In this document: one piece after another, positions 2,856 through 35,100 of the stretch | Layout of the letters: the number at the start of each line of letters is the position of its first letter | How positions within the stretch are numbered: position 1 is the stretch's first letter | DNA from: a virus | Lineage: Duplodnaviria > Heunggongvirae > Uroviricota > Caudoviricetes | Direction: 5' to 3' (one strand) | Length of the DNA: 36,178 nt | Virus record (IMG/VR): IMGVR_UViG_2695420793_000017 | Program-made: the position numbers and the translations under genes | Notes under the pieces: generated by a model | Database searches by the model: none | Told to the model about the DNA's origin: nothing | Seen by the model: the letters and a program-made list of their open reading frames with translations, nothing else

Positions 2856-3074
2856 TCAAAGAGAGAGCGCCACCTGCCCTGATTTCATTGGATGCGGCTG
2901 AACCGGATTTGACTCTTTTGGCGTTGCAATCGAACGAACAAAAGTTTCATGGGTAACAAAAGTATGGCTGCAGTTAATGTTCTGGCACTGGTTGTAACGC
3001 TCTTTGGTCAATGAAGATACCTGAAAACTGCTGCGAGTATGGGCGGCACTTCCACACAGTGGGCAAATCATCAT
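2856..3074 (-). CDS. ogr: late gene transcriptional activator Ogr (zinc finger)
   Basis: CPLCG...CQNINC zinc-finger pattern; aligns with P2 Ogr as recalled; start placed at the second Met because the listed ORF begins at a GTG. Confidence 0.8.
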   Translation of the reverse strand: MMICPLCGSAAHTRSSFQVSSLTKERYNQCQNINCSHTFVTHETFVRSIATPKESNPVQPHPMKSGQVALSL

Positions 3075-3164
3075 TTTTCGAGTTCTCCCCATTTTTGCTA
3101 AATTCACAACAATGATACCGCATTATTCCATTTTGCAAACTTAAAAGTTCTCCATTGCGAAGAA

Positions 3165-4265
3165 TCATTCCATTTCGAAATCATCAATCCTCACTTCAAG
3201 CTCCAGACTGGTCGTAAAACCGTTATCCGGGCTGACGGTATGCGTCAGAGTCGTAATGGTCCATTCCGCATCATCTATCGGCTGTTTAAAGCCACTGACT
3301 TTCACTGGCATTTCCGTGTAGAGATCTGCCCGCCCTTCCGCCAGTTGTAGCGAGAATGACGCAACGCCGCGTTGCAGGCGTTCCCACTGCATTTTCGCTG
3401 CCCGTTCGGCGTTACTCCGATTAGCATAGGTGCGATTAAGTACCAGCACGTTTTCATCCGTACCCACCAGGTAATCGCCCTGCTTCGCTTCCGGCTCTTT
3501 CTTCTGCTTCTTAGTCCTGCGCTTACGCTTCACCGCGGTGCTTTCTTTCTTCGCGGGTTCGCGGGTATGCAACCAGCTGGCAATTACGCCCGTGTAAGCT
3601 CCGCGATCTGCCAGGGTAAAGCGGTGACTGTCGCCGTCCTTACGTGTGATAGTGATAACCGGTAGTGGTTTACCACTGGCGCTTTTACCCTGCCCCTGTC
3701 GGATGAATAACAGATTGCCATTTTTCACCGACGCAATAGCACCGTACTGGCGCGCCAGCCGCATCAGAAAACTGCCGTCACTCTCATTGGTCTGGTCTAT
3801 ATGTTCCACGGGTTTATCTGACAGGTCTTTACCCAATGCCATCTTCAGTTTGTGCCGCGCAGCTATTTCCTTCACCACTTCCCCAACGGTGGTCTTGTGC
3901 CACGACTTTTCACGGCGGGTATTCAGTGTTTCACGAAAATCAGCACTTCGCGCCCGGATAGTCAGGCGATCCGGTGCGCCAGTGTGTTCAATCTCGTCCA
4001 CCGTGAATGCCCCTTTCGGGAAAAGCAGCTGCCCCTTCCAGCCCAGCGCCAGCGTAATGACCGCACCACGGCGCGGCAGCACGATTTTTCCATCGGCGTC
4101 GTCCAGTTCCAGATCAAGCTGGTCCGCTTCAAAGCCCCGGTTATCCGTCAGCGTAAGCCCCATCAGGCGGTTGTCCAGCACAGTAGTGATATCCCTGCCT
4201 TCAATACTGATGCTGAATGCCGGAGTTTTGTTGCCTTTGTTAAGCAGTTCAGAGCTGAAATTCAC
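3165..4265 (-). CDS. D: tail protein D (late control D)
   Basis: 366-aa ORF at the P2 gpD position; translation resembles the gpD family. Confidence 0.8.
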   Translation of the reverse strand: MNFSSELLNKGNKTPAFSISIEGRDITTVLDNRLMGLTLTDNRGFEADQLDLELDDADGKIVLPRRGAVITLALGWKGQLLFPKGAFTVDEIEHTGAPDRLTIRARSADFRETLNTRREKSWHKTTVGEVVKEIAARHKLKMALGKDLSDKPVEHIDQTNESDGSFLMRLARQYGAIASVKNGNLLFIRQGQGKSASGKPLPVITITRKDGDSHRFTLADRGAYTGVIASWLHTREPAKKESTAVKRKRRTKKQKKEPEAKQGDYLVGTDENVLVLNRTYANRSNAERAAKMQWERLQRGVASFSLQLAEGRADLYTEMPVKVSGFKQPIDDAEWTITTLTHTVSPDNGFTTSLELEVRIDDFEME

Positions 4266-21186: not shown

Positions 21187-22953
21187 ATGAACACCACACT
21201 GACACCCGCAGATCTCGATCCCCGTCGGCAGGCCATGCTGCTGTACTTTCAGGGATACCGCGTAGCCCGCATTGCTGAAATGCTGGGCGAGAAAGTTGCA
21301 ACCGTTCACAGCTGGAAAAAACGCGACAAGTGGGGTGACTATGGGCCGCTGGATCAGATGCAGCTCACCACCGCCGCACGCTACTGCCAGCTCATCATGA
21401 AGGAGCACAAAGAAGGGAAAGATTTCAAAGAGATTGACCTGCTGGCGCGCCAGTCGGAGCGCCACGCGCGGATCGGCAAGTTTAACAATGGCGGCAACGA
21501 AGCCGACTTAAACCCTAACGTCGCCAACCGCAATAAAGGCCCACGCCGTCAGCCGGAAAAGAATGTTTTCACCGATGAGCAGATTGAGAAGCTGGAAGAA
21601 ATCTTCCATTCCTCCATGTTCAACTACCAGCGCCACTGGTGGGAAGCCGGAAAAACCAACCGCATCCGCAACCTGCTGAAGTCACGCCAGATCGGCGCGA
21701 CCTTTTACTTTGCCCGTGAAGCCCTGATTGACGCCCTGCTTACCGGACGTAACCAGATTTTCCTTTCCGCCAGCAAGGCACAGGCCCACGTCTTTAAGCA
21801 GTACATCATCGACTTCGCCAAAGAAGTGGGGGTGGAGTTGAAAGGCGATCCGATGGTGCTTCCTAACGGGGCCACGCTTTACTTCCTCGGCACCAATGCC
21901 CGCACGGCCCAGAGTTATCACGGCAACCTGTATCTGGATGAATATTTCTGGATACCGAAATTCCAGGAGCTGCGCAAAGTGGCTTCCGGTATGGCTATTC
22001 ACAAAAAATGGCGACAAACCTATTTTTCCACGCCATCCAGCCTGACACACAGTGCTTATCCGTTCTGGTCCGGTGCGCTGTTCAACCGTGGGCGCAACAA
22101 GGCCGACAAGGTGGACATCGACCTGTCCCACAGCAATCTGGCCCCCGGCCTGCTGTGCGCAGACGGGCAATACCGCCAGATAGTCACCGTGGAAGATGCG
22201 GTGCGCGGCGGCTGTAACCTGTTCGACCTTGACCAGTTGCGCATGGAGTACAGCCCGGACGAATACCAGAACCTGCTGATGTGCGAGTTTGTGGACGATC
22301 TCGCGTCCGTATTTCCGCTCAGCGAGCTGCAGGCGTGCATGGTGGACAGCTGGGAAGTCTGGACCGACTTTCATGCACTGGCTCTGCGCCCGTTTGGCTG
22401 GCGCGAAGTGTGGATCGGTTATGACCCGGCAAAAGGTACGCAAAACGGCGACAGCGCCGGATGCGTGGTGGTGGCACCGCCAGCCGTGCCTGGTGGTAAG
22501 TTCCGCATTCTTGAGCGTCACCAGTGGCGCGGGATGGACTTCCGCGCCCAGGCTGACGCCATCAAAAAACTGACCGAACAGTACAACGTGACCTATATCG
22601 GTATCGACTCAACCGGCGTTGGTCACGGGGTTTATGAGAACGTGAAAGCGTTCTTTCCTGCCGTCCGGGAGTTTGTCTACAACCCCAATGTTAAAAACGC
22701 CCTGGTACTCAAGGCCTACGACATTATCAGCCACCGCCGTCTGGAGTTTGACGCCGGGCACACCGACATTGCGCAGTCATTTATGGCAATCCGTCGCGCT
22801 ACCACTGCCAGTGGCAACCGCCCGACCTATGAAGCCAGCCGCAGCGAAGAAGCCAGCCATGCCGATCTGGCCTGGGCAACAATGCACGCACTGTTTAACG
22901 AACCGCTGCAGGGCGAGTCCGCCAATACCAGCAATATTGTGGAGATTTTTTGA
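21187..22953 (+). CDS. P: terminase large (ATPase) subunit P
   Basis: 588-aa ORF; gpP family; stop overlaps the Q start. Confidence 0.85.
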   Translation: MNTTLTPADLDPRRQAMLLYFQGYRVARIAEMLGEKVATVHSWKKRDKWGDYGPLDQMQLTTAARYCQLIMKEHKEGKDFKEIDLLARQSERHARIGKFNNGGNEADLNPNVANRNKGPRRQPEKNVFTDEQIEKLEEIFHSSMFNYQRHWWEAGKTNRIRNLLKSRQIGATFYFAREALIDALLTGRNQIFLSASKAQAHVFKQYIIDFAKEVGVELKGDPMVLPNGATLYFLGTNARTAQSYHGNLYLDEYFWIPKFQELRKVASGMAIHKKWRQTYFSTPSSLTHSAYPFWSGALFNRGRNKADKVDIDLSHSNLAPGLLCADGQYRQIVTVEDAVRGGCNLFDLDQLRMEYSPDEYQNLLMCEFVDDLASVFPLSELQACMVDSWEVWTDFHALALRPFGWREVWIGYDPAKGTQNGDSAGCVVVAPPAVPGGKFRILERHQWRGMDFRAQADAIKKLTEQYNVTYIGIDSTGVGHGVYENVKAFFPAVREFVYNPNVKNALVLKAYDIISHRRLEFDAGHTDIAQSFMAIRRATTASGNRPTYEASRSEEASHADLAWATMHALFNEPLQGESANTSNIVEIF

Positions 22954-23987
22954 TGGGAAAGAGTAAGAAGAACCGCGCTGCGTCGACGAAACAGATCCAG
23001 CATAAAAGCCAGACTTCAGCCGAAGCATTCAGCTTCGGTGATCCCGTTCCTGTTCTGGACCGCCGCGAACTGCTGGACTATGTGGAATGCGTACAGATGG
23101 AGCGTTGGTACGAGCCACCCGTAAGTTTTGACGGACTGGCGCGCACCTTCCGGGCTGCCGTGCATCACAGTTCCCCGATTGCAGTAAAGTGCAACATTCT
23201 GACCAGTACCTATATCCCTCATCCGCTGCTCAGCCAACAGGCTTTTTCGCGTTTTGTACAGGACTATCTGGTATTTGGTAACGCCTACCTGGAGAAACGC
23301 ACGAACCGATTCGGTGAAGTTATCGCCCTTGAGCCTGCGCTGGCAAAATACACCCGACGCGGGTTAGACCTGGATACCTACTGGTTTGTGCAATACGGTA
23401 TGACAACCCAGCCGTATCAGTTCACGAAAGGCAGCATTTTTCATCTGATGGAACCGGACATCAACCAGGAGATCTACGGCCTGCCCGGCTATCTTTCTGC
23501 CATCCCATCCGCTTTGCTCAACGAGTCCGCCACGCTGTTCCGCCGCAAGTATTACATTAACGGCAGTCATGCCGGCTTCATCATGTACATGACCGATGCC
23601 GCGCAGAACCAGGAGGATGTGAACAACCTCCGCAACGCAATGAAAAGCGCCAAAGGTCCGGGTAACTTCCGCAATCTGTTTATGTACTCGCCTAATGGTA
23701 AAAAAGACGGACTTCAGATTATCCCGTTGTCAGAAGTCGCAGCGAAGGATGAATTTCTGAATATCAAAAATGTTAGTCGCGATGACATGATGGCGGCACA
23801 CCGCGTGCCGCCACAGATGATGGGGATAATGCCAAATAATGTTGGGGGGTTTGGGGATGTGGAGAAGGCAAGTAATGTATTTGTACGCAATGAACTAATA
23901 CCATTGCAAAAAAGATTTGAAGAGTTAAATGTTTGGTTAAAAGAAAAAGTGATACAGTTCGAAGAATATAAACTTCATTCAAATTAG
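22950..23987 (+). CDS. Q: portal protein Q
   Basis: 345-aa ORF; gpQ family. Confidence 0.85.
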   Translation: MMGKSKKNRAASTKQIQHKSQTSAEAFSFGDPVPVLDRRELLDYVECVQMERWYEPPVSFDGLARTFRAAVHHSSPIAVKCNILTSTYIPHPLLSQQAFSRFVQDYLVFGNAYLEKRTNRFGEVIALEPALAKYTRRGLDLDTYWFVQYGMTTQPYQFTKGSIFHLMEPDINQEIYGLPGYLSAIPSALLNESATLFRRKYYINGSHAGFIMYMTDAAQNQEDVNNLRNAMKSAKGPGNFRNLFMYSPNGKKDGLQIIPLSEVAAKDEFLNIKNVSRDDMMAAHRVPPQMMGIMPNNVGGFGDVEKASNVFVRNELIPLQKRFEELNVWLKEKVIQFEEYKLHSN

Positions 23988-24019: not shown

Positions 24020-25270
24020 TTATCGCCATTTTAGATAAAAAGCAAAAAATGGATCAGTAATATGCAACTTTCGGTCCTCCTTATCCCAATCTATTACAGG
24101 AGTTGAAGCTTCTTCCGTAGCAGCTATTTTAGCCATTTTTTCTATAACACGAGTAACCTCATGAGCTTGTGGAGGAGCATCTTGCACCAGTTCGCGTATG
24201 GCTGATCTTAACTCCTCATACTGAATACTTTGCATTCCTGGTTTCATATGTGACAATGCATATAATACAACTTTATATATATCTACTTCCTCACCACTTT
24301 TCAGTTTTCTAGGAATTCTGTCAGTTCGCTGATTAGGGCCACTAGCTAACTTATCAAATACTATTTTCCCAGTGGATTCTGCAACCTTTCTAAAAATATC
24401 ATCATCTAAAGAATTAATAACTAACTTACTCGGCAAAGTTTCTTTAACATTATTTACTAAGCATATAGCCTTGCAAAACTCTTGCATTAAATGAGGGCTT
24501 CCCAATGATTCATTGGCAATTTTATCAATTACTGAATCACTAACTTCCATGTTTAACAGAGGAAATCCCACTTTTGCTATTTGTTTTAGTTCATCCATTT
24601 CCCACGAAGGCATGGAAATATTTTCTAGCCGTCCGGTAATTTCTTTTTCAACTTTTACAGCATCATATCTTCGATGTGGAATGGCTATCAGTACAACTGG
24701 TACTCCATCAAAAACTAATGGTTTTATCGCTCTAATAAAGTTACCTTGTAGGTCACGATCAAGGTAATGAAAGTCATCAATTATAAGACTAGACTTGGTT
24801 TGAGAGAGAACTTTTAGTGCAGAACTTTTTGCGGATATCGTTCGCGATTTTTTATTACCATTTGACTTTCCATCCGTCTGAACTAAACCAGCCTCACCTG
24901 TACCTTTAACAACGAATGCACTTGCGGTCCCCGATACCTTACCACTAACTGCAATAGCACTATTTTCTCCAGAATTAACTTCAATACTATGGTAGCCATT
25001 TAGTTTTTCTAATACCTGCTCCCAAATATCATCTTCAGTTGTAATACTCCCACCGTCAATCCATACAACATCATCGTCCATAACTGGGAATACCATTCTT
25101 GTAATTACAGTCTTACCAGACTTTGTTTGCCCAGTTAAAGTCACTAACTTACATAAATTATCTTTAGCACTCTCCAGTTTTCCATGAACCTCTCCTTCAG
25201 AGCGCTCAACATAAGTCAATTTCGGCATACCGCCAGGCACAAAAACTTGTGAAGCACGTTGTTTATCCAT
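24020..25270 (-). CDS. P-loop NTPase of unknown function (accessory gene, candidate anti-phage defence)
   Basis: 416-aa ORF; Walker A GQTKSGKT and Walker B-like LIIDDFHYLDRD; visibly AT-rich versus neighbours; lies between cos and Q. Confidence 0.8.
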   Translation of the reverse strand: MDKQRASQVFVPGGMPKLTYVERSEGEVHGKLESAKDNLCKLVTLTGQTKSGKTVITRMVFPVMDDDVVWIDGGSITTEDDIWEQVLEKLNGYHSIEVNSGENSAIAVSGKVSGTASAFVVKGTGEAGLVQTDGKSNGNKKSRTISAKSSALKVLSQTKSSLIIDDFHYLDRDLQGNFIRAIKPLVFDGVPVVLIAIPHRRYDAVKVEKEITGRLENISMPSWEMDELKQIAKVGFPLLNMEVSDSVIDKIANESLGSPHLMQEFCKAICLVNNVKETLPSKLVINSLDDDIFRKVAESTGKIVFDKLASGPNQRTDRIPRKLKSGEEVDIYKVVLYALSHMKPGMQSIQYEELRSAIRELVQDAPPQAHEVTRVIEKMAKIAATEEASTPVIDWDKEDRKLHITDPFFAFYLKWR

Positions 25271-26304: not shown

Positions 26305-26538
26305 TTAATGCAGCCAGCTGTCGTCCTCCCACACCTTCTGCATAATTTTCATCACTTGTTTTCTTTCTTCATCCAGTTGCAGTCCGGTTAGTTCCACACC
26401 GTTAGAGCTACCTTTGCGAATGCGAATTACCGTTTTGGGATACAGGGGGCGCAGATTGCGGTAAAGCTCGGATTCAAGGGCGTCCAGGGTAGACTGGCTA
26501 ATCTTCTGCTCTTTATCGATCATTATTTCAATGCGCAT
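26305..26538 (-). CDS. DinI-family protein
   Basis: MRIEIMIDK...WEDDSWLH resembles E. coli DinI (MRIEVTIAK...WESADDWF) as recalled; start set at ATG 26538 with a GAGGTGA Shine-Dalgarno overlapping the upstream stop. Confidence 0.7.
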   Translation of the reverse strand: MRIEIMIDKEQKISQSTLDALESELYRNLRPLYPKTVIRIRKGSSNGVELTGLQLDEERKQVMKIMQKVWEDDSWLH

Positions 26539-26548
26539 AAAAGTCACC

Positions 26549-26737
26549 TCAGCTGATGACATCCATTGAGCGGTTGTATTCGTGACTTCTGATTTTTGCC
26601 ATAAGTTCATCAGTCAATTCAGAAACCCACTGCAGAGCCAGCCCCTTCTCTTCATCACTACACTCACTAGCCGCTACAAGCTTAAGAAAAAAATCAATGC
26701 GCTGAAGCTTCAAAGACTCCAAAAAATAGTCCTGCAT
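26549..26737 (-). CDS. small hypothetical protein, first gene of the LexA-box operon (possible Tum-like N-terminal module)
   Basis: 62-aa ORF with an AGGAGG Shine-Dalgarno; a LexA box lies about 45 nt upstream; translationally coupled to the dinI-like gene. Confidence 0.55.
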   Translation of the reverse strand: MQDYFLESLKLQRIDFFLKLVAASECSDEEKGLALQWVSELTDELMAKIRSHEYNRSMDVIS

Positions 26738-26777
26738 CTTTCCTCCTATGACACCAAAACAATACTGTATACATAAC

Positions 26778-26797
26778 CACTGTTTATATTTACAGTA
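26778..26797. promoter_or_regulatory. LexA box (SOS operator)
   Basis: cACTGTttatatttACAGta = CTGT-N8-ACAG with an AT-rich spacer, overlapping a candidate -10 for the minus-strand operon. Confidence 0.65.
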
Positions 26798-31601: not shown

Positions 31602-32060
31602 ATGACTAAACAAAGCTCCGAATACTTCCAATTACACTACTGTTATTACCTTGAACTAATGACAGCAACGTTCCATGGTCGAGCTGATAAATTAATGACA
31701 GCAATCCAACTTATAAGCGGAACAGCTGTATTTGCTAATACAGGTCTGGAATGGTTGTTCGCTTTTCCTGTTGTTGTAATCGCAACAATCCAACTTGTAT
31801 GGCAACCAGCTATTATTGCGGAACGAGCAAGCATACAAAGCCGACAATATGGTGAGTTGCTTTACGCCGAGGATGAATTGTCTCCACAGTTCATTGCACA
31901 AAAATTGAAAGCTTTGCATCACTCTGACTCCACAACATTCGGATCTTTGTTAAACCCTGCCTACAAAAGAGCTGCTATTGCCTGTGGTCGGGTTGACGAT
32001 GTAAACCTCAGCTTCCAAGAAAAACTTTTCGCTTGGTTCGCAGGTTGTTTGCCACGTTAA
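31602..32060 (+). CDS. hypothetical membrane protein (moron, opposite strand to the early operon)
   Basis: 152-aa ORF with a hydrophobic segment; AGGAAT Shine-Dalgarno; lower GC by eye; bracketed by the 60-bp direct repeats. Confidence 0.55.
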   Translation: MTKQSSEYFQLHYCYYLELMTATFHGRADKLMTAIQLISGTAVFANTGLEWLFAFPVVVIATIQLVWQPAIIAERASIQSRQYGELLYAEDELSPQFIAQKLKALHHSDSTTFGSLLNPAYKRAAIACGRVDDVNLSFQEKLFAWFAGCLPR

Positions 32061-32248: not shown

Positions 32249-32758
32249 TCACAGCAAACCGAATGAAGCACCGAGGCCAGTCACGGTATCAACTGCACTC
32301 GCCATCGCAGGATTAGCCTGTAAACGGGCCTGCAATGAAACAGCAGCCAGCGCCATCAGTCGTGTTACAGAGTTAATGCTGCTGATAGCATCACGACGAC
32401 CGGCACTAGTTTTTACATCACCAGATACCGCACCTGCTGCAACACGTCCGATCTCTGCAGTTGCGCTCATGACGTAATGCGGCAGTTTCTCTTTTGCAAC
32501 CTCATTAATCGGTACACATGGCAGGCAGTGAATCTGTGCCAGAAAACCATCTACCAGCGTTGAATCTTCAGTCAGATCGGTAAGCAGCCAGATTTCTGGT
32601 GCAGTTAATAAATGAGGTTGAGATGGGTTCAGCTTGTTCCGCAGAATCTGCACATTCATGCCAGCACGTTCTGCCAGTTGCACCAGGTTGTGGCGCAATG
32701 CGAATGCACGACAGGCTTCATCAAAATGTGGATGTTTGGAAACTTGGTAATCAAACAT
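32249..32758 (-). CDS. cII: CII-like lysogeny establishment regulator (186 type)
   Basis: start set at [19 protein letters not shown]..., which matches the N-terminus and length of phage 186 CII as recalled. Confidence 0.75.
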
Positions 32759-32790
32759 GGTCGATACCCCTGATGTATCCCAAAATGGAA

Positions 32791-33012
32791 CTAGTTGAAT
32801 ACAACATTGCAATCAGTAAGTGCATCAACGGTAAGAGCAGCAAGGTTGATCATCACCTTTTCTCTTTTCTTGTCTTTCCGAAGGCGATGCCGAGGGATGC
32901 GACCGTCAGCCAGCATATCGTTAATTGTATCGATTGAAAGACCAGTAAGTTCGCTATAACGCTCAATTGTGACATGTGGCGTATTCAGAGTTATTGAAAT
33001 GTTAGGGGTCAT
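32791..33012 (-). CDS. apl: Apl/Cox-like excisionase and transcriptional regulator
   Basis: 73-aa HTH-like ORF divergent from cI and first gene of the lytic operon. Confidence 0.65.
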
Positions 33013-33100
33013 GATGCAACATCTCCTATTGGCTTGTGGTGAGCCGGTTTGAATTGTGACCAGAACTTCACAAAACGGAGATTAGGATCTCATAACGGTT

Positions 33101-34039
33101 ATGTCAACTCAAAAAAACACATTTCGCCATATTAGCGAGAGTCTAAAAACTTCAATAATGCAAAACCGTGGGGGACAGAAAGTAATTGAGCGTATACTTG
33201 CTGCGTATGGTTTTACTTCGCGGCAAGCATTTTGCAATCATCTGGGTATCTCACAAAGCACGATGGCTAACAGGTATGCTCGTGACACATTTCCTGCTGA
33301 CTGGGTGATAATTTGCAGTATAGAGACCGGCGCATCTATCGACTGGTTGGCATCGGGAATCAGCTGTGAATCATCCTCAGTTTTATTAAATGATGAACGT
33401 TTAGCCCATACCAAATCTGATGACCTGGATAGAACTAACTCAATAGCCCAAAAGTTCCCAATCGAGACCAGCATAAATCCTAATAAAGGAGGGAAGGCGG
33501 CAATTGATCGCTTAGTCGCAGCCTACGGCTTTAGCACCCGACAAGCCCTAGCAAACCATTTGCAGGTTTCAAAAAGCACTGTAGCAAACAGGTACTTACG
33601 AGACACGTTTCCTAGCGATTGGATCATTCAATGCGCTCTTGAAACAGGAACTTCATTACTCTGGCTCACAAACGGCAATGGCCCCAAATTTATCGATAAT
33701 TCCAGCTCTGTAGCCCAACTTAAACACCAAACAATCATTGACGGTAAATTACATGATGAAGGCTACTTAGCATTTGACAAGACGCTTATACCTTCCGGAT
33801 TGAAAAAACCTATTGGAGTTACCGCAGAAGGAAAAACCTTTATTGCAGATACAGAATATGATGATGTTTCAGATGGTAGTTGGTTGATTGAGATTGAAGG
33901 TAAAGTAAGTTTAAGAAAATTAACAAGAATTCCAGTTGGAAAAGTAAAAATCACATCAGATACAACTGATTTTGTTTGTAAGCTTGAAGACATTACAACC
34001 ATCGCAAAATGTTGTTGCGTTTTTTCAAAGGAAATTTAA
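33101..34039 (+). CDS. cI: CI-like immunity repressor with a tandemly duplicated N-terminal DNA-binding domain
   Basis: 312-aa ORF; two homologous modules (...ERILAAYGF.SRQAFCNHLGISQSTMANRYARDTFPADW... and ...DRLVAAYGFSTRQALANHLQVSKSTVANRYLRDTFPSDW...) followed by a C-terminal domain. Confidence 0.75.
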   Translation: MSTQKNTFRHISESLKTSIMQNRGGQKVIERILAAYGFTSRQAFCNHLGISQSTMANRYARDTFPADWVIICSIETGASIDWLASGISCESSSVLLNDERLAHTKSDDLDRTNSIAQKFPIETSINPNKGGKAAIDRLVAAYGFSTRQALANHLQVSKSTVANRYLRDTFPSDWIIQCALETGTSLLWLTNGNGPKFIDNSSSVAQLKHQTIIDGKLHDEGYLAFDKTLIPSGLKKPIGVTAEGKTFIADTEYDDVSDGSWLIEIEGKVSLRKLTRIPVGKVKITSDTTDFVCKLEDITTIAKCCCVFSKEI

Positions 34040-34049
34040 AGGAACATAC

Positions 34050-35039
34050 ATGAATTCTGAAAATAAAAAAAATGAAAACAACGATTATGTTGAAAAAGTT
34101 AATTGCGAATGGAAAGATCTTTATAATATTTTAAATGAAAATCTGCATAAATTTAATGAAAATGAACGCGCCTACTTAGTCGACTTATTAAAAAAAGGTG
34201 AACTTGATAAATTCAGAGAATACTACTGGAAATTAGCCCAGCAAGAAAAAATGAACTACAGCGATAAAGCTGGAGATATTTTTATTAATGAAAACAATAA
34301 GATAGATGAATTAATAAAAGAACAAAAACATCTTCGAGAGATAATGCGATCATATACCAAACGTTTATTGGAGGCTGAAGAGTCCAAAGCTACGTTACAT
34401 CTTCGGAATGAGAATTTAGAAAAACTAAATTCTGAAAAAGAAGCAATTATTGAGCAAGCCGTATCTAGAATAAAGCAACTTGAAGCATCTAACAGCGAAT
34501 TACAAAGCCGAGTACAACAAGAAAGGATTGATGAGAAAATACCAGGATATGTCGATAGCGTTAAAAGTGAACTAAGTTCAGATGACTTATATTTCATTAA
34601 AATGTCGCAAGTATGGGCTTTTACTGGCTGCATTTTTGGGCTACTTGCTGTATGTGCATCATTTTATACACTCTACGCCACAATTGACTTCAACAATGTT
34701 AAAGGCTTTGAGCTATTTTATTTTTTCACACGTGGTTTAATTGGTATTTCCATTCTTTCTTGGCTAGCATATATTTGCCTTGGCAACTCTAAAAAATATA
34801 CCCATGAATCAATTTTGAGAAAAGATAGAAGACATGCACTAATGTTTGGGCAAGTATTCCTGCAAATTTATGGTTCCACGTCAACAAAAGAAGATGCTGT
34901 GTTAGTCTTTAAAGACTGGAATATGTCTGGTAACTCTGCATTTTCTGACAAAACAGAACTCCCTCCGGGAATCCAATCTTTATGGGATTCAACCAAAGAA
35001 AAACTAAAGCCAAGTACCGCTGAAAAAGCACAGGAGTGA
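34050..35039 (+). CDS. hypothetical coiled-coil/two-TM protein (AT-rich moron between cI and int)
   Basis: start set at MNSENKK (AGGAA Shine-Dalgarno); Lys/Glu/Asn-rich coiled-coil N-half, two hydrophobic helices; strongly AT-rich by eye. Confidence 0.7.
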   Translation: MNSENKKNENNDYVEKVNCEWKDLYNILNENLHKFNENERAYLVDLLKKGELDKFREYYWKLAQQEKMNYSDKAGDIFINENNKIDELIKEQKHLREIMRSYTKRLLEAEESKATLHLRNENLEKLNSEKEAIIEQAVSRIKQLEASNSELQSRVQQERIDEKIPGYVDSVKSELSSDDLYFIKMSQVWAFTGCIFGLLAVCASFYTLYATIDFNNVKGFELFYFFTRGLIGISILSWLAYICLGNSKKYTHESILRKDRRHALMFGQVFLQIYGSTSTKEDAVLVFKDWNMSGNSAFSDKTELPPGIQSLWDSTKEKLKPSTAEKAQE

Positions 35040-35074
35040 GGCCAATGTTTATTTCACCCTAAACATACATTGAT

Positions 35075-35094
35075 AACTGTTTAAATATACAGTT
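35075..35094. promoter_or_regulatory. LexA-box-like palindrome upstream of int
   Basis: aACTGTttaaatatACAGtt = CTGT-N8-ACAG; function uncertain. Confidence 0.35.
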
Positions 35095-35100
35095 AAATTT

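Follow-up and report, generated by a model that had tools for sequence, protein, structure and literature searches.

A CI repressor with two tandem N-terminal domains and a chimeric origin in a P2/186-like prophage of Escherichia coli

The window analysed here, the whole of a 36,178-nucleotide stretch of viral DNA (IMG/VR record IMGVR_UViG_2695420793_000017), is an Escherichia coli P2/186-like prophage located between ybjL and rcdA and is identical to NZ_CP018948. Its immunity repressor gene cI (33101..34039, + strand) encodes a protein of 312 amino acids (aa) in which two CI-type helix-turn-helix (HTH) domains, the heads N1 and N2, are followed by a single C-terminal oligomerisation domain (CTD). 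This tandem CI is a real, selected and recurrent variant of the CI repressor of phage 186. It is already present, unremarked, in known phages; what is new is its chimeric origin, found by comparison with its relatives, and an arrangement in which the outer head varies and the inner one is conserved.

Domain architecture of the repressor

The cI reading frame is open over 312 codons without interruption, and RefSeq places a coding sequence (CDS) at identical coordinates, annotated as 'phage repressor protein CI' (WP_077870828.1). In Pfam the protein matches PF07022 (Phage_CI_repr) in two stretches (E 8e-55) and PF16452 (Phage_CI_C) over residues 207-305 (E 1.5e-30), and a hidden Markov model built from both copies of the N-terminal domain (NTD) locates these domains at residues 24-88 and 130-194. 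From its start the protein comprises a leader (codons 1-23, MSTQKNTFRHISESLKTSIMQNR; 33101..33169), N1 with the recognition helix SQSTMANRYAR ('Q-type'; residues 24-88, 33170..33364), an interdomain linker (residues 89-129, 33365..33487), N2 with the recognition helix SKSTVANRYLR ('K-type'; residues 130-194, 33488..33682), and the CTD (residues 207-305, 33719..34015), all on the + strand. The domain search thus bears out the preliminary description of this DNA, which had proposed two tandem CI-type domains ahead of a single C-terminal domain. The module identity of about 60% given there was measured as 58% in a BLASTP comparison of the two halves (residues 14-86 against 120-192, 42 of 73 identical, gapless, E 1e-33), a similarity far above chance level, and the divergence of the copies at the DNA level was likewise found, with 56.6% identity and only 23 of 73 third codon positions agreeing, which is near random.

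The preliminary description had further given 186 CI one NTD and a length of about 192 aa, and this is indeed so (192 aa, CDS 22433-23011). When 186 CI (PDB 2FJR) was compared with the window protein, it aligned to residues 134-310 only (E 1.8e-32), N2 being matched by its residues 10-82. One NTD per monomer and a length of about 190-210 aa are usual for 186-type CI proteins, from which the window CI departs with its two NTDs and 312 aa. No repressor family other than PF07022 and PF16452 scored above the Pfam cut-offs in the 312-aa protein, which also gave no Pfam match to an S24 peptidase domain, and NCBIfam contains no model for the tandem CI protein. The similarity of the CTD fold to the CTDs of LexA and lambda is weak (E 1e-6 and weaker, 9-16% identity). 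Nor is the protein a P2 C-type repressor (a direct-repeat binder of about 99 aa), as there is no such match in Pfam and the neighbouring genes cII and apl are of the 186 type. The upstream module is not a separate small gene, a possibility that would have undone the preliminary description: the frame runs open through a linker of 37-48 aa in 31 distinct homologues, and the start is conserved.

Occurrence of the tandem form

The exact allele, queried with positions 32700-35100 (2401 bases, coverage at least 80%), is found in 24 of 5426 complete E. coli genomes. Among 5.8 billion proteins searched, 806 relatives were found. The lengths of the best 120 of these 806 are bimodal (about 188-209 aa and about 291-330 aa), and the hosts of tandem forms among them comprise E. 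coli, Klebsiella, Citrobacter, Enterobacter, Salmonella, Kosakonia and Edwardsiella; two NTDs are present in 50 of 121 proteins (the best 120 clusters at 90% identity and the window protein). A search with N2 alone against the 50%-identity representatives of 1.84 billion clusters gave 178 matches, and about 25 of the best 150 of these representatives are genuine two-NTD proteins, including P0130, P0137, P0151, P0252 and P0198. The matches in several stretches of P0177, P0236 and P0243 were discarded from this census, these being unrelated repetitive proteins. Tandem CI is a frequent minority form, neither a singleton nor the norm of the family, and the latter would have spoken against the preliminary description.

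Deposited phages with a tandem CI include the Klebsiella phages 4LV2017 (Elveevirus) and ST11-VIM1phi8.4 (Kapieceevirus), both classified by the International Committee on Taxonomy of Viruses. A literature search found no description of a tandem CI head, which is not proof of absence; the sole comparative paper found on long CIs calls the extra length 'a longer C-terminal domain' (PMC3448106). In the record of ST11-VIM1phi8.4 (MK416020.1, locus 3001-3936) the annotated CI CDS is 257 aa long and begins inside N1; a full frame of 311 aa with the conserved start exists, and the annotation drops the leader and part of N1. In Dryocola sp. BD586 (NZ_CP150452, locus L010) the CTD of a tandem cI is broken by frameshifts and stops from about locus position 3690, and the remaining product (P0034, 229 aa) consists of N1, linker and N2, representing a decaying or repurposed copy.

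Two domain subtypes and a chimeric gene

Our main tandem set comprises 58 loci from IMG/VR, genomes and phages; viral contigs were the chief source, and a scan of genome contigs gave 5 loci. All 58 carry the helix signatures SQSTMANRYAR in N1 and SKST[LV]A[NT]RY[LM]R in N2, and single-domain CIs carry one or the other. In a neighbour-joining tree of 168 NTDs, built on 65 residues and without bootstrap support, the N1 copies of the main class group in a single clade, whose sister comprises the NTDs of single-domain CIs 206-209 aa long (Q-type), and the N2 copies are interspersed among the NTDs of single-domain CIs of 196-201 aa (K-type). N1 of the window protein is 85% identical to the NTD of the single-domain CIs P0099 and P0049, and the same value of 85% holds for its N2 against many NTDs of single-domain K-type CIs. 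Each head is thus far closer to single-domain relatives than the 58% that the two share, and N1 and N2 belong to two different subtypes and do not stem from a duplication within the gene.

The flanking DNA is also of mixed affinity. From -400 to -50 relative to the cI ATG (apl to the pL side) the DNA of the window shares 94% identity with the K-type single-domain phage L097, compared with 60% for Q-type phages. K-type single-domain phages have the palindrome GT(A/C)CCCAA(A/T)TGGG(A/T)AC at -45 to -30 and a second copy, GTACCCAAxTGAGATC, at +14 to +29 of cI. The tandem phages are without the palindrome at -45 to -30; instead they show a TCACA layout common to one group of Q-type singles (the L011 type), with the repeats (T/A)TCACA at -34, (A/T)TCNCA at -14 and A(A/T)CACATTTCGCC at +15. 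Residues 116-131 of the window protein (QKFPIETSINPNKG) and their DNA match codons 4-18 of the K-type cI (SKYPSEIKINPNKGG), including the old second operator copy. Taken together, the subtype identities and the chimeric flanking DNA show that the gene is a near-complete K-type cI, from about codon 4, whose front has been replaced. A foreign cassette of pR, operators, start, N1 and linker, joined in frame by recombination, has displaced the K-type pR palindrome and start, and N2 plus CTD is an ordinary single-domain K-type CI. The preliminary description had taken the two copies for an old and presumably maintained duplication; maintenance agrees with the selection on both heads described below, but a duplication within the gene does not agree with the two subtypes and the chimeric DNA.

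Selection and predicted structure

Selection was compared in 150 pairs, taken from a set of 31 distinct tandem proteins whose synonymous sites are close to saturation. Median amino acid identity and median ratio of nonsynonymous to synonymous divergence (pN/pS) were 86% and 0.13 in N1 and 80% and 0.19 in N2, against 65% and 0.48 in the leader, 27% and 0.73 in the linker, and 32% and 0.66 in the CTD; the linker varied in length from 37 to 48 aa over the 31 homologues. Both heads are thus under purifying selection. Synonymous divergence (pS) is only 0.40 in the leader compared with about 0.77 in the heads, which indicates a constraint at the DNA level on the first 69 nt of cI, where the -35 element of pR and the third repeat described below are located.

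An AlphaFold2 model, computed with a 30-sequence alignment (predicted TM score of the monomer 0.40), shows both heads confidently as complete five-helix domains, with a predicted local distance difference test score (pLDDT) of about 80-88 (about 80-87 in N1). The linker is predicted to be disordered (pLDDT 25-32 for residues 89-122). In a Foldseek comparison the modelled CTD matched the CTD of 186 CI (2fkd_A) with a TM score of 0.91 and a root mean square deviation of 1.6 Å.

Across single-domain and tandem CIs the heads are conserved and their helices near-invariant, and the oligomerisation domain is highly divergent (median identity 31-32%, pN/pS 0.66), the reverse of what is usual for immunity repressors. 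This hints that in this family CTD diversification, by which mixed oligomers might be avoided or an antirepressor escaped, may matter more than helix change.

Other tandem lineages and reshuffling of modules

The K-type N2 is not tied to one outer head, as N1 types SQ, SS, SA, SN and SK are all found with it. In the group of P0022 and P0029 (loci L178 and L180, class SS+SK) a 186-like N1 (SSSTLANRYTRD) precedes a K-type N2. The left junction of these two loci is the same as in the class of the window (…GGTGAGCC), and they have three clear operators, ATTCACGTTAAGGAGAAT, ATTCTCACAAAATGTGAGT and ATTCTCACATTTTGGGAGT, spaced 20 and 29 bp around a TTGACA -35 element, and retain a K-type site, AAGTTCCCAATTGAGATC, immediately before N2. 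Locus L140 (class SA+SK) combines an ev040-like N1 with an ev040-like switch and, ahead of its K-type N2, has the perfect K palindrome GTCCCCAATTGGGAAC in the DNA of the linker. Judged from these loci, at least three N1 types, each apparently with its own pR operator set, precede the same K-type N2. The CTDs of tandem proteins are often 73-97% identical to some single-domain CTD at a median of 31% among themselves, and that of the window protein is 75% identical to the CTD of the single-domain P0026; heads and body have thus been reshuffled repeatedly.

A second, distant tandem group comprises proteins from Hafnia, Citrobacter, Pantoea, Edwardsiella, Enterobacter and Shewanella as well as Salmonella phage PSP3, whose CI of 286 aa matches PF07022 twice and PF16452 once. 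In this group N1 has a median identity of 46% and a hypervariable recognition helix, and N2 a median identity of 69%. The PSP3 group thus repeats the pattern of a variable outer head N1 and a conserved, CTD-proximal head N2.

Two single-domain CIs from IMG/VR (L163 and L165) bear on how the two site vocabularies are read. They have the helix SKSTMANRYSR and a hybrid palindrome, GTTCACA(T/G)(C/A)TGGGTAC, that joins TTCAC-type and GGGTAC-type half-sites and is located about 30-50 nt upstream of the cI start and at +14 to +30 inside the gene.

Candidate operators in the switch region

186 CI assembles from seven dimers into a wheel (a 14-mer) that wraps and loops operator DNA, and it has three operators at pR as well as the FL, FR and pB sites. 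By analogy with the annotated pR of 186, the inferred lytic promoter of the window is placed at 33079..33107 on the - strand, with the -35 element TTGACA (33107..33102) over the cI ATG and the -10 element TAATCT at 33084..33079. The motif (A/G)TGTCAAC, which reads as a perfect TTGACA on the opposite strand and in the class of the window includes the cI start codon, is conserved in every switch class. The cI start itself, ATGTCAAC, is kept across switch classes and, together with CACATTTCGCC, is conserved at the DNA level in tandem loci. A consensus promoter scan of 32700-33500 missed pR, whose -10 element matches at 3 of 6 positions only, and the repeats in this region are short and at chance level.

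Three candidate sites associated with N1 surround this promoter. The first, CTTCACAAAACGGAGATT (33066..33083, class TTCAC-N6-GAGAAT), covers the pR start and -10 element; its arms and position recur in further tandem loci as well as in Q-type singles, ATTCACGTTAAGGAGAAT takes this place in the SS+SK class, and the site resembles the 186 pB site ATTCACGAATTGAGAAT. The second, another TCNCA repeat (ATCTCA, 33087..33092), is located in the pR spacer 20 bp from the first. The third, AACACATTTCGCC (33116..33128), lies upstream of the pR -35 element in codons 6-10 of cI and therefore in the leader; it is conserved at the DNA level in tandem loci and has the counterpart AACACAAATCGCC in Q-type singles. 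The layout at -34, -14 and +15 is common to all SQ+SK tandem loci and to the L011-type Q singles, with the same 20 and 29 bp spacing in L178 and L180, and the positions over the start and -10 element, in the spacer and upstream of -35 match the three annotated 186 CI operators. L022 (IMGVR_UViG_2740892419_000001), which is closely related to the window, has an 18-bp tandem duplication, ATTGGCTTGTGGTGAGCC, in the half of the switch next to apl, about 60-100 nt before the ATG, and its pR -10 region is also altered (GATTTGAATCTT); possibly this represents a variant of the switch or a mutation of the virulent type.

An operator-like site of the K type, GTTCCCAATCGAGACC, is found in the coding DNA of the linker (33454..33469, + strand) and is homologous to the site at +14 to +29 of the K-type cI. 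Its score against the K-type position weight matrix (PWM), 14.2 bits, is the best in the whole window, and across non-redundant tandem loci whose N2 helix is of the ANRY type it stands out as an island, with a DNA identity of 70-79% against 28-38% in the rest of the linker. The sequence CCCAA precedes N2 in 15 of the 18 unique tandem loci that have ANRY in the N2 helix and in 0 of the 10 that have ATRY, and a K-type site before N2 is also retained in the independent SS+SK and SA+SK lineages. The distance of GTTCCCAATCGAGACC from pR is about 350 bp; the FL site of 186, likewise inside cI, is about 285 bp from pR. Within the pR region, no half-site of the K type (CCCAA/TTGGG) was found in the window or in other SQ+SK loci.

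The gene apl (32791..33012, - strand; phrog_575, E 7e-31), divergent from cI, encodes a Cox-like excisionase/repressor of 73 aa and is followed by cII of the CP76 family (32249..32758, - strand; PF06892, E 3.6e-42, and RefSeq). The gap between them contains TATCCCAAAATGGAAC (32776..32791), which corresponds in position to FR and the pE start of 186 and is conserved in all CI classes, and the promoter spacer of the ogr/B-like late activator gene (2856-3074) contains TTGCAAAATGGAA (3126..3138, - strand) at the position of the 186 pB CI site; the two have the 10-mer CAAAATGGAA in common. Other candidates were dropped: TTGTGA-N8-TCACAA (33054-33073) is unique in the window and expected by chance, and its left arm is part of the common K backbone and is variably spaced, by 7-9 bp, in relatives, and neither GATAC-N7-GTATC in the apl-cII gap nor CATTTTGCAAAATG is enriched.

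Possible roles of the two heads

The explanation we favour, at somewhat better than even confidence, is that the prophage repressor belongs to the 186 CI family and carries an additional, modular head, N1 serving pR and N2 serving distal sites. N1, encoded beside the operators it came with, would bind the three sites around pR (about 33066-33128) and thereby set which phages are repressed, that is, the immunity specificity. N2, for which pR offers no palindrome, would bind the retained K-type site at 33454-33469, in an FL-like position, and possibly other conserved backbone sites, and this binding would help to loop or anchor the CI oligomer as FL and FR do in 186. Induction would occur via a LexA-controlled Tum-like antirepressor and not by cleavage. 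As the N2-type palindrome is absent from pR and the only good N2-type site is distant, the sequence points to two separate site sets rather than to one long site.

Several observations weigh against this explanation. All operator assignments are positional or comparative and thus putative. A Q-type 17-mer scan for the candidate N1 operator pattern gave no enrichment window-wide, and the right arm of the pattern coincides with the pR -10 element. Shuffled sequence reaches PWM scores similar to that of GTTCCCAATCGAGACC, whose conservation could reflect the encoded peptide K-F/S-P-I/N-E, an N-terminal arm of the K-type NTD, or could merely mark the cassette boundary. CCCAA before N2 has been lost in roughly half of the unique tandem loci, among them all those of the ATRY subgroup, and the covariation of helix and CCCAA may be a single phylogenetic event. 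TATCCCAAAATGGAAC and its partner at pB had to be given up as N2-type sites because, conserved in all CI classes, they cannot be assigned to one head, and the NTD tree, as noted above, is without bootstrap support.

A second possibility, which we consider only tentatively and which is compatible with the explanation just given, is that immunity has become broader and asymmetric: N2 would be kept mainly against superinfecting ancestral K-type phages and N1 for the phage's own pR, with the tandem lysogen immune to both types and the tandem phage escaping K-type repressors. The recognition helix of N2 hardly differs from the one in single-domain K-type CIs, strong purifying selection acts on N2 although its main operator is gone, and the tandem phage does not have the K-type palindrome at its own pR. 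Moreover, K-type phages have apl/cII DNA that is 94-98% identical, and one of them, 813R9, resides at the same rcdA/ybjJ site. The argument is purely inferential, however; the N2 helix of the window has Val where K-type singles have Leu, and the kept intragenic K-type site suggests a role in self-regulation too.

The preliminary description had suggested that two HTH domains per monomer could recognise a longer or bipartite operator and thereby alter immunity specificity. The link to immunity is plausible, but we found no evidence for a composite operator, the N2-type palindrome being absent from pR and the only good N2-type site lying about 350 bp away within the gene. We therefore regard it as unlikely that the heads of one monomer occupy neighbouring half-sites at pR, even though a flexible linker of about 40 aa would let both heads reach nearby grooves, three sites with the unusual spacing of 20 and 29 bp flank pR, and the single-domain variants L163 and L165 use a hybrid palindrome, GTTCACAGATGGGTAC, that mixes both half-site types. 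We rate this idea lower than separate sites for the two heads because no N2-type half-site occurs near pR and because the linker is unconstrained (37-48 aa, 27% identity), which is a poor match for two heads held in a fixed geometry; furthermore, on the bound face of the 186 wheel model each helical turn already faces one HTH.

It is more doubtful still that one head does not bind DNA and acts as a spacer, an intramolecular regulator, a decoy or an additional target of a Tum-like antirepressor that alters induction. A LexA-controlled split tum-like operon is present and Tum binds CI (PMC3121763), and with CTD and linker hypervariable and the heads conserved, something besides DNA specificity seems to diversify. 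But in both heads the recognition-helix signature seen in single-domain repressors, which must bind DNA, is complete, making a decoy or spacer role unlikely, both heads are predicted as complete five-helix domains, and each N1 type arrives with its own operator set. Finally, a merger of two adjacent genes by sequencing or annotation error, or a decaying pseudogene, can practically be dismissed: the disrupted CTD of the Dryocola locus and the phage record with a 257-aa CDS starting inside N1 are outweighed by the identical open reading frame (ORF) in complete E. coli genomes, a frame kept in 31 distinct proteins despite linker indels, a conserved start context and purifying selection on both heads.

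Comparison with known systems

The closest model for the window CI is 186 CI (192 aa; PDB 2FJR and 2FKD), which consists of the same NTD (PF07022) and CTD (PF16452) families. 186 also shares the gene order, with cII and apl on one strand and cI, (cargo) and int on the other, and the likeness extends to three sites around pR and an intragenic distal site in a position analogous to FL, which in the window are candidates, and to the LexA/Tum module. With respect to the 186 CI wheel, the likeness of the window CI is one of CTD fold only. The two systems differ in that 186 CI has one NTD per monomer and the window CI two, and in that the pR -35 element of the window overlaps the cI start codon, unlike that of 186; the intergenic gap is 88 bp compared with 129 bp in 186. 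Shearwin, Dodd and Egan (2002, J Biol Chem 277:3186) are said to have found that the single HTH of 186 CI reads two types of site, whereas the window CI has two different heads.

Of the natural tandem forms, the CIs of Klebsiella phages 4LV2017 and ST11-VIM1phi8.4 are in the same SQ+SK class as the window CI and share the 88-bp switch layout and the apl/cII backbone, at 50-54% overall identity and about 30% in the CTD. Unlike the window, 4LV2017 has the ATRY variant of the N2 helix and no CCCAA site before N2. PSP3 CI and its relatives (SEN1, SW9, Midge, 613R3) show the same architecture, the variable N1 with a conserved N2, and a split tum operon; they differ in NTDs that are about 40% identical to the window N2, in helices of the WV[QR]R type and in a different protein at the Apl position. 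The single-domain K-type CIs, such as that of Escherichia phage vB_EcoM-813R9 (198 aa) and P0026, correspond to the N2 and CTD part, over which P0026 is 77% identical, and K-type single phages share the backbone and the attachment site with the window prophage; they lack N1, and their pR has the palindrome GTACCCAATTGGGTAC, which is absent in the tandem phage. An engineered lambda-186 hybrid repressor (PDB 7JVT), with a foreign NTD on the 186 CTD, follows the same modular logic as the natural cassette swaps, although it is an artificial NTD replacement and the window CI has an added second NTD.

Induction module and neighbouring genes

A split tum-like operon under SOS control is located at 26305..26795 (- strand) and consists of a LexA box (26780-26795), an ORF of 62 aa (26549-26737) and a DinI-like gene (26305-26538), with profile matches to phrog_698 and phrog_189 (the latter over profile positions 72-148 of 151). 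A tum operon split in this way also occurs in PSP3 and Fels-2, where the upstream ORF encodes the antirepressor, and Tum works by binding CI (PMC3121763); by analogy, this operon is probably the induction route of the window prophage. A second perfect LexA box, CTGTTTAAATATACAG (35077-35092), was found between a cargo gene (34050-35039) and int (35126-) and suggests SOS control of integrase expression or a promoter in the gap. Two perfect LexA boxes in the window compare with 0.5 expected.

The cargo gene at 34050-35039 (+ strand), part of the lysogenic operon between cI and int, encodes a coiled-coil protein of 329 aa that matches phrog_2628 (unknown function, E 1e-88) and for which neither a Pfam match above cut-off nor a PADLOC match was obtained. 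In relatives this position is occupied by a 558-aa 'chromosome segregation ATPase' (813R9) or a 349-aa hypothetical protein (4LV2017) or is empty (SopEPhi, phi12.1), and it looks like a variable cargo or defence slot. Beside the portal gene, another cargo gene (24020-25270, - strand, 415 aa) gave a PADLOC match to PDC-S59, a candidate defence family (E 3e-31), and a weak match to LmuA/DUF4297. An ORF of 152 aa without family match (31602-32060, + strand) lies antisense between two Fil-family genes of the early operon.

Conclusions

186 CI is a textbook alternative to the lambda switch, and its wheel has one kind of head that must work at pR as well as at the distal sites. A natural and widespread version with two different heads per subunit offers a ready-made test of which site needs which head, of whether wrapping can be separated from looping, and of the way in which 28 heads fit on a wheel. 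In practice, wrong sizes are given for tandem CI genes by annotation pipelines and in one phage record.

We tentatively suggest, at the same low level of confidence as for broadened immunity, that immunity in P2/186-like phages may evolve by swaps of a cassette, consisting of pR, operators and the cognate head, placed before a resident CI that keeps its own head, which would yield a repressor that reads two operator vocabularies and an asymmetric immunity. If this is true, a recombinant lysogen would exclude phages of both the donor and the ancestral type, and the recombinant phage would escape the ancestral repressor. The 14-mer wheel would then also bear 28 heads of two kinds, and binding at pR and distal looping would cease to compete for heads in the way known from 186. 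This would be a testable route by which immunity changes in one recombination step without a non-immune intermediate, and patterns of superinfection exclusion in P2-like prophages, which E. coli, Klebsiella and Salmonella commonly carry, could be accounted for in this way.

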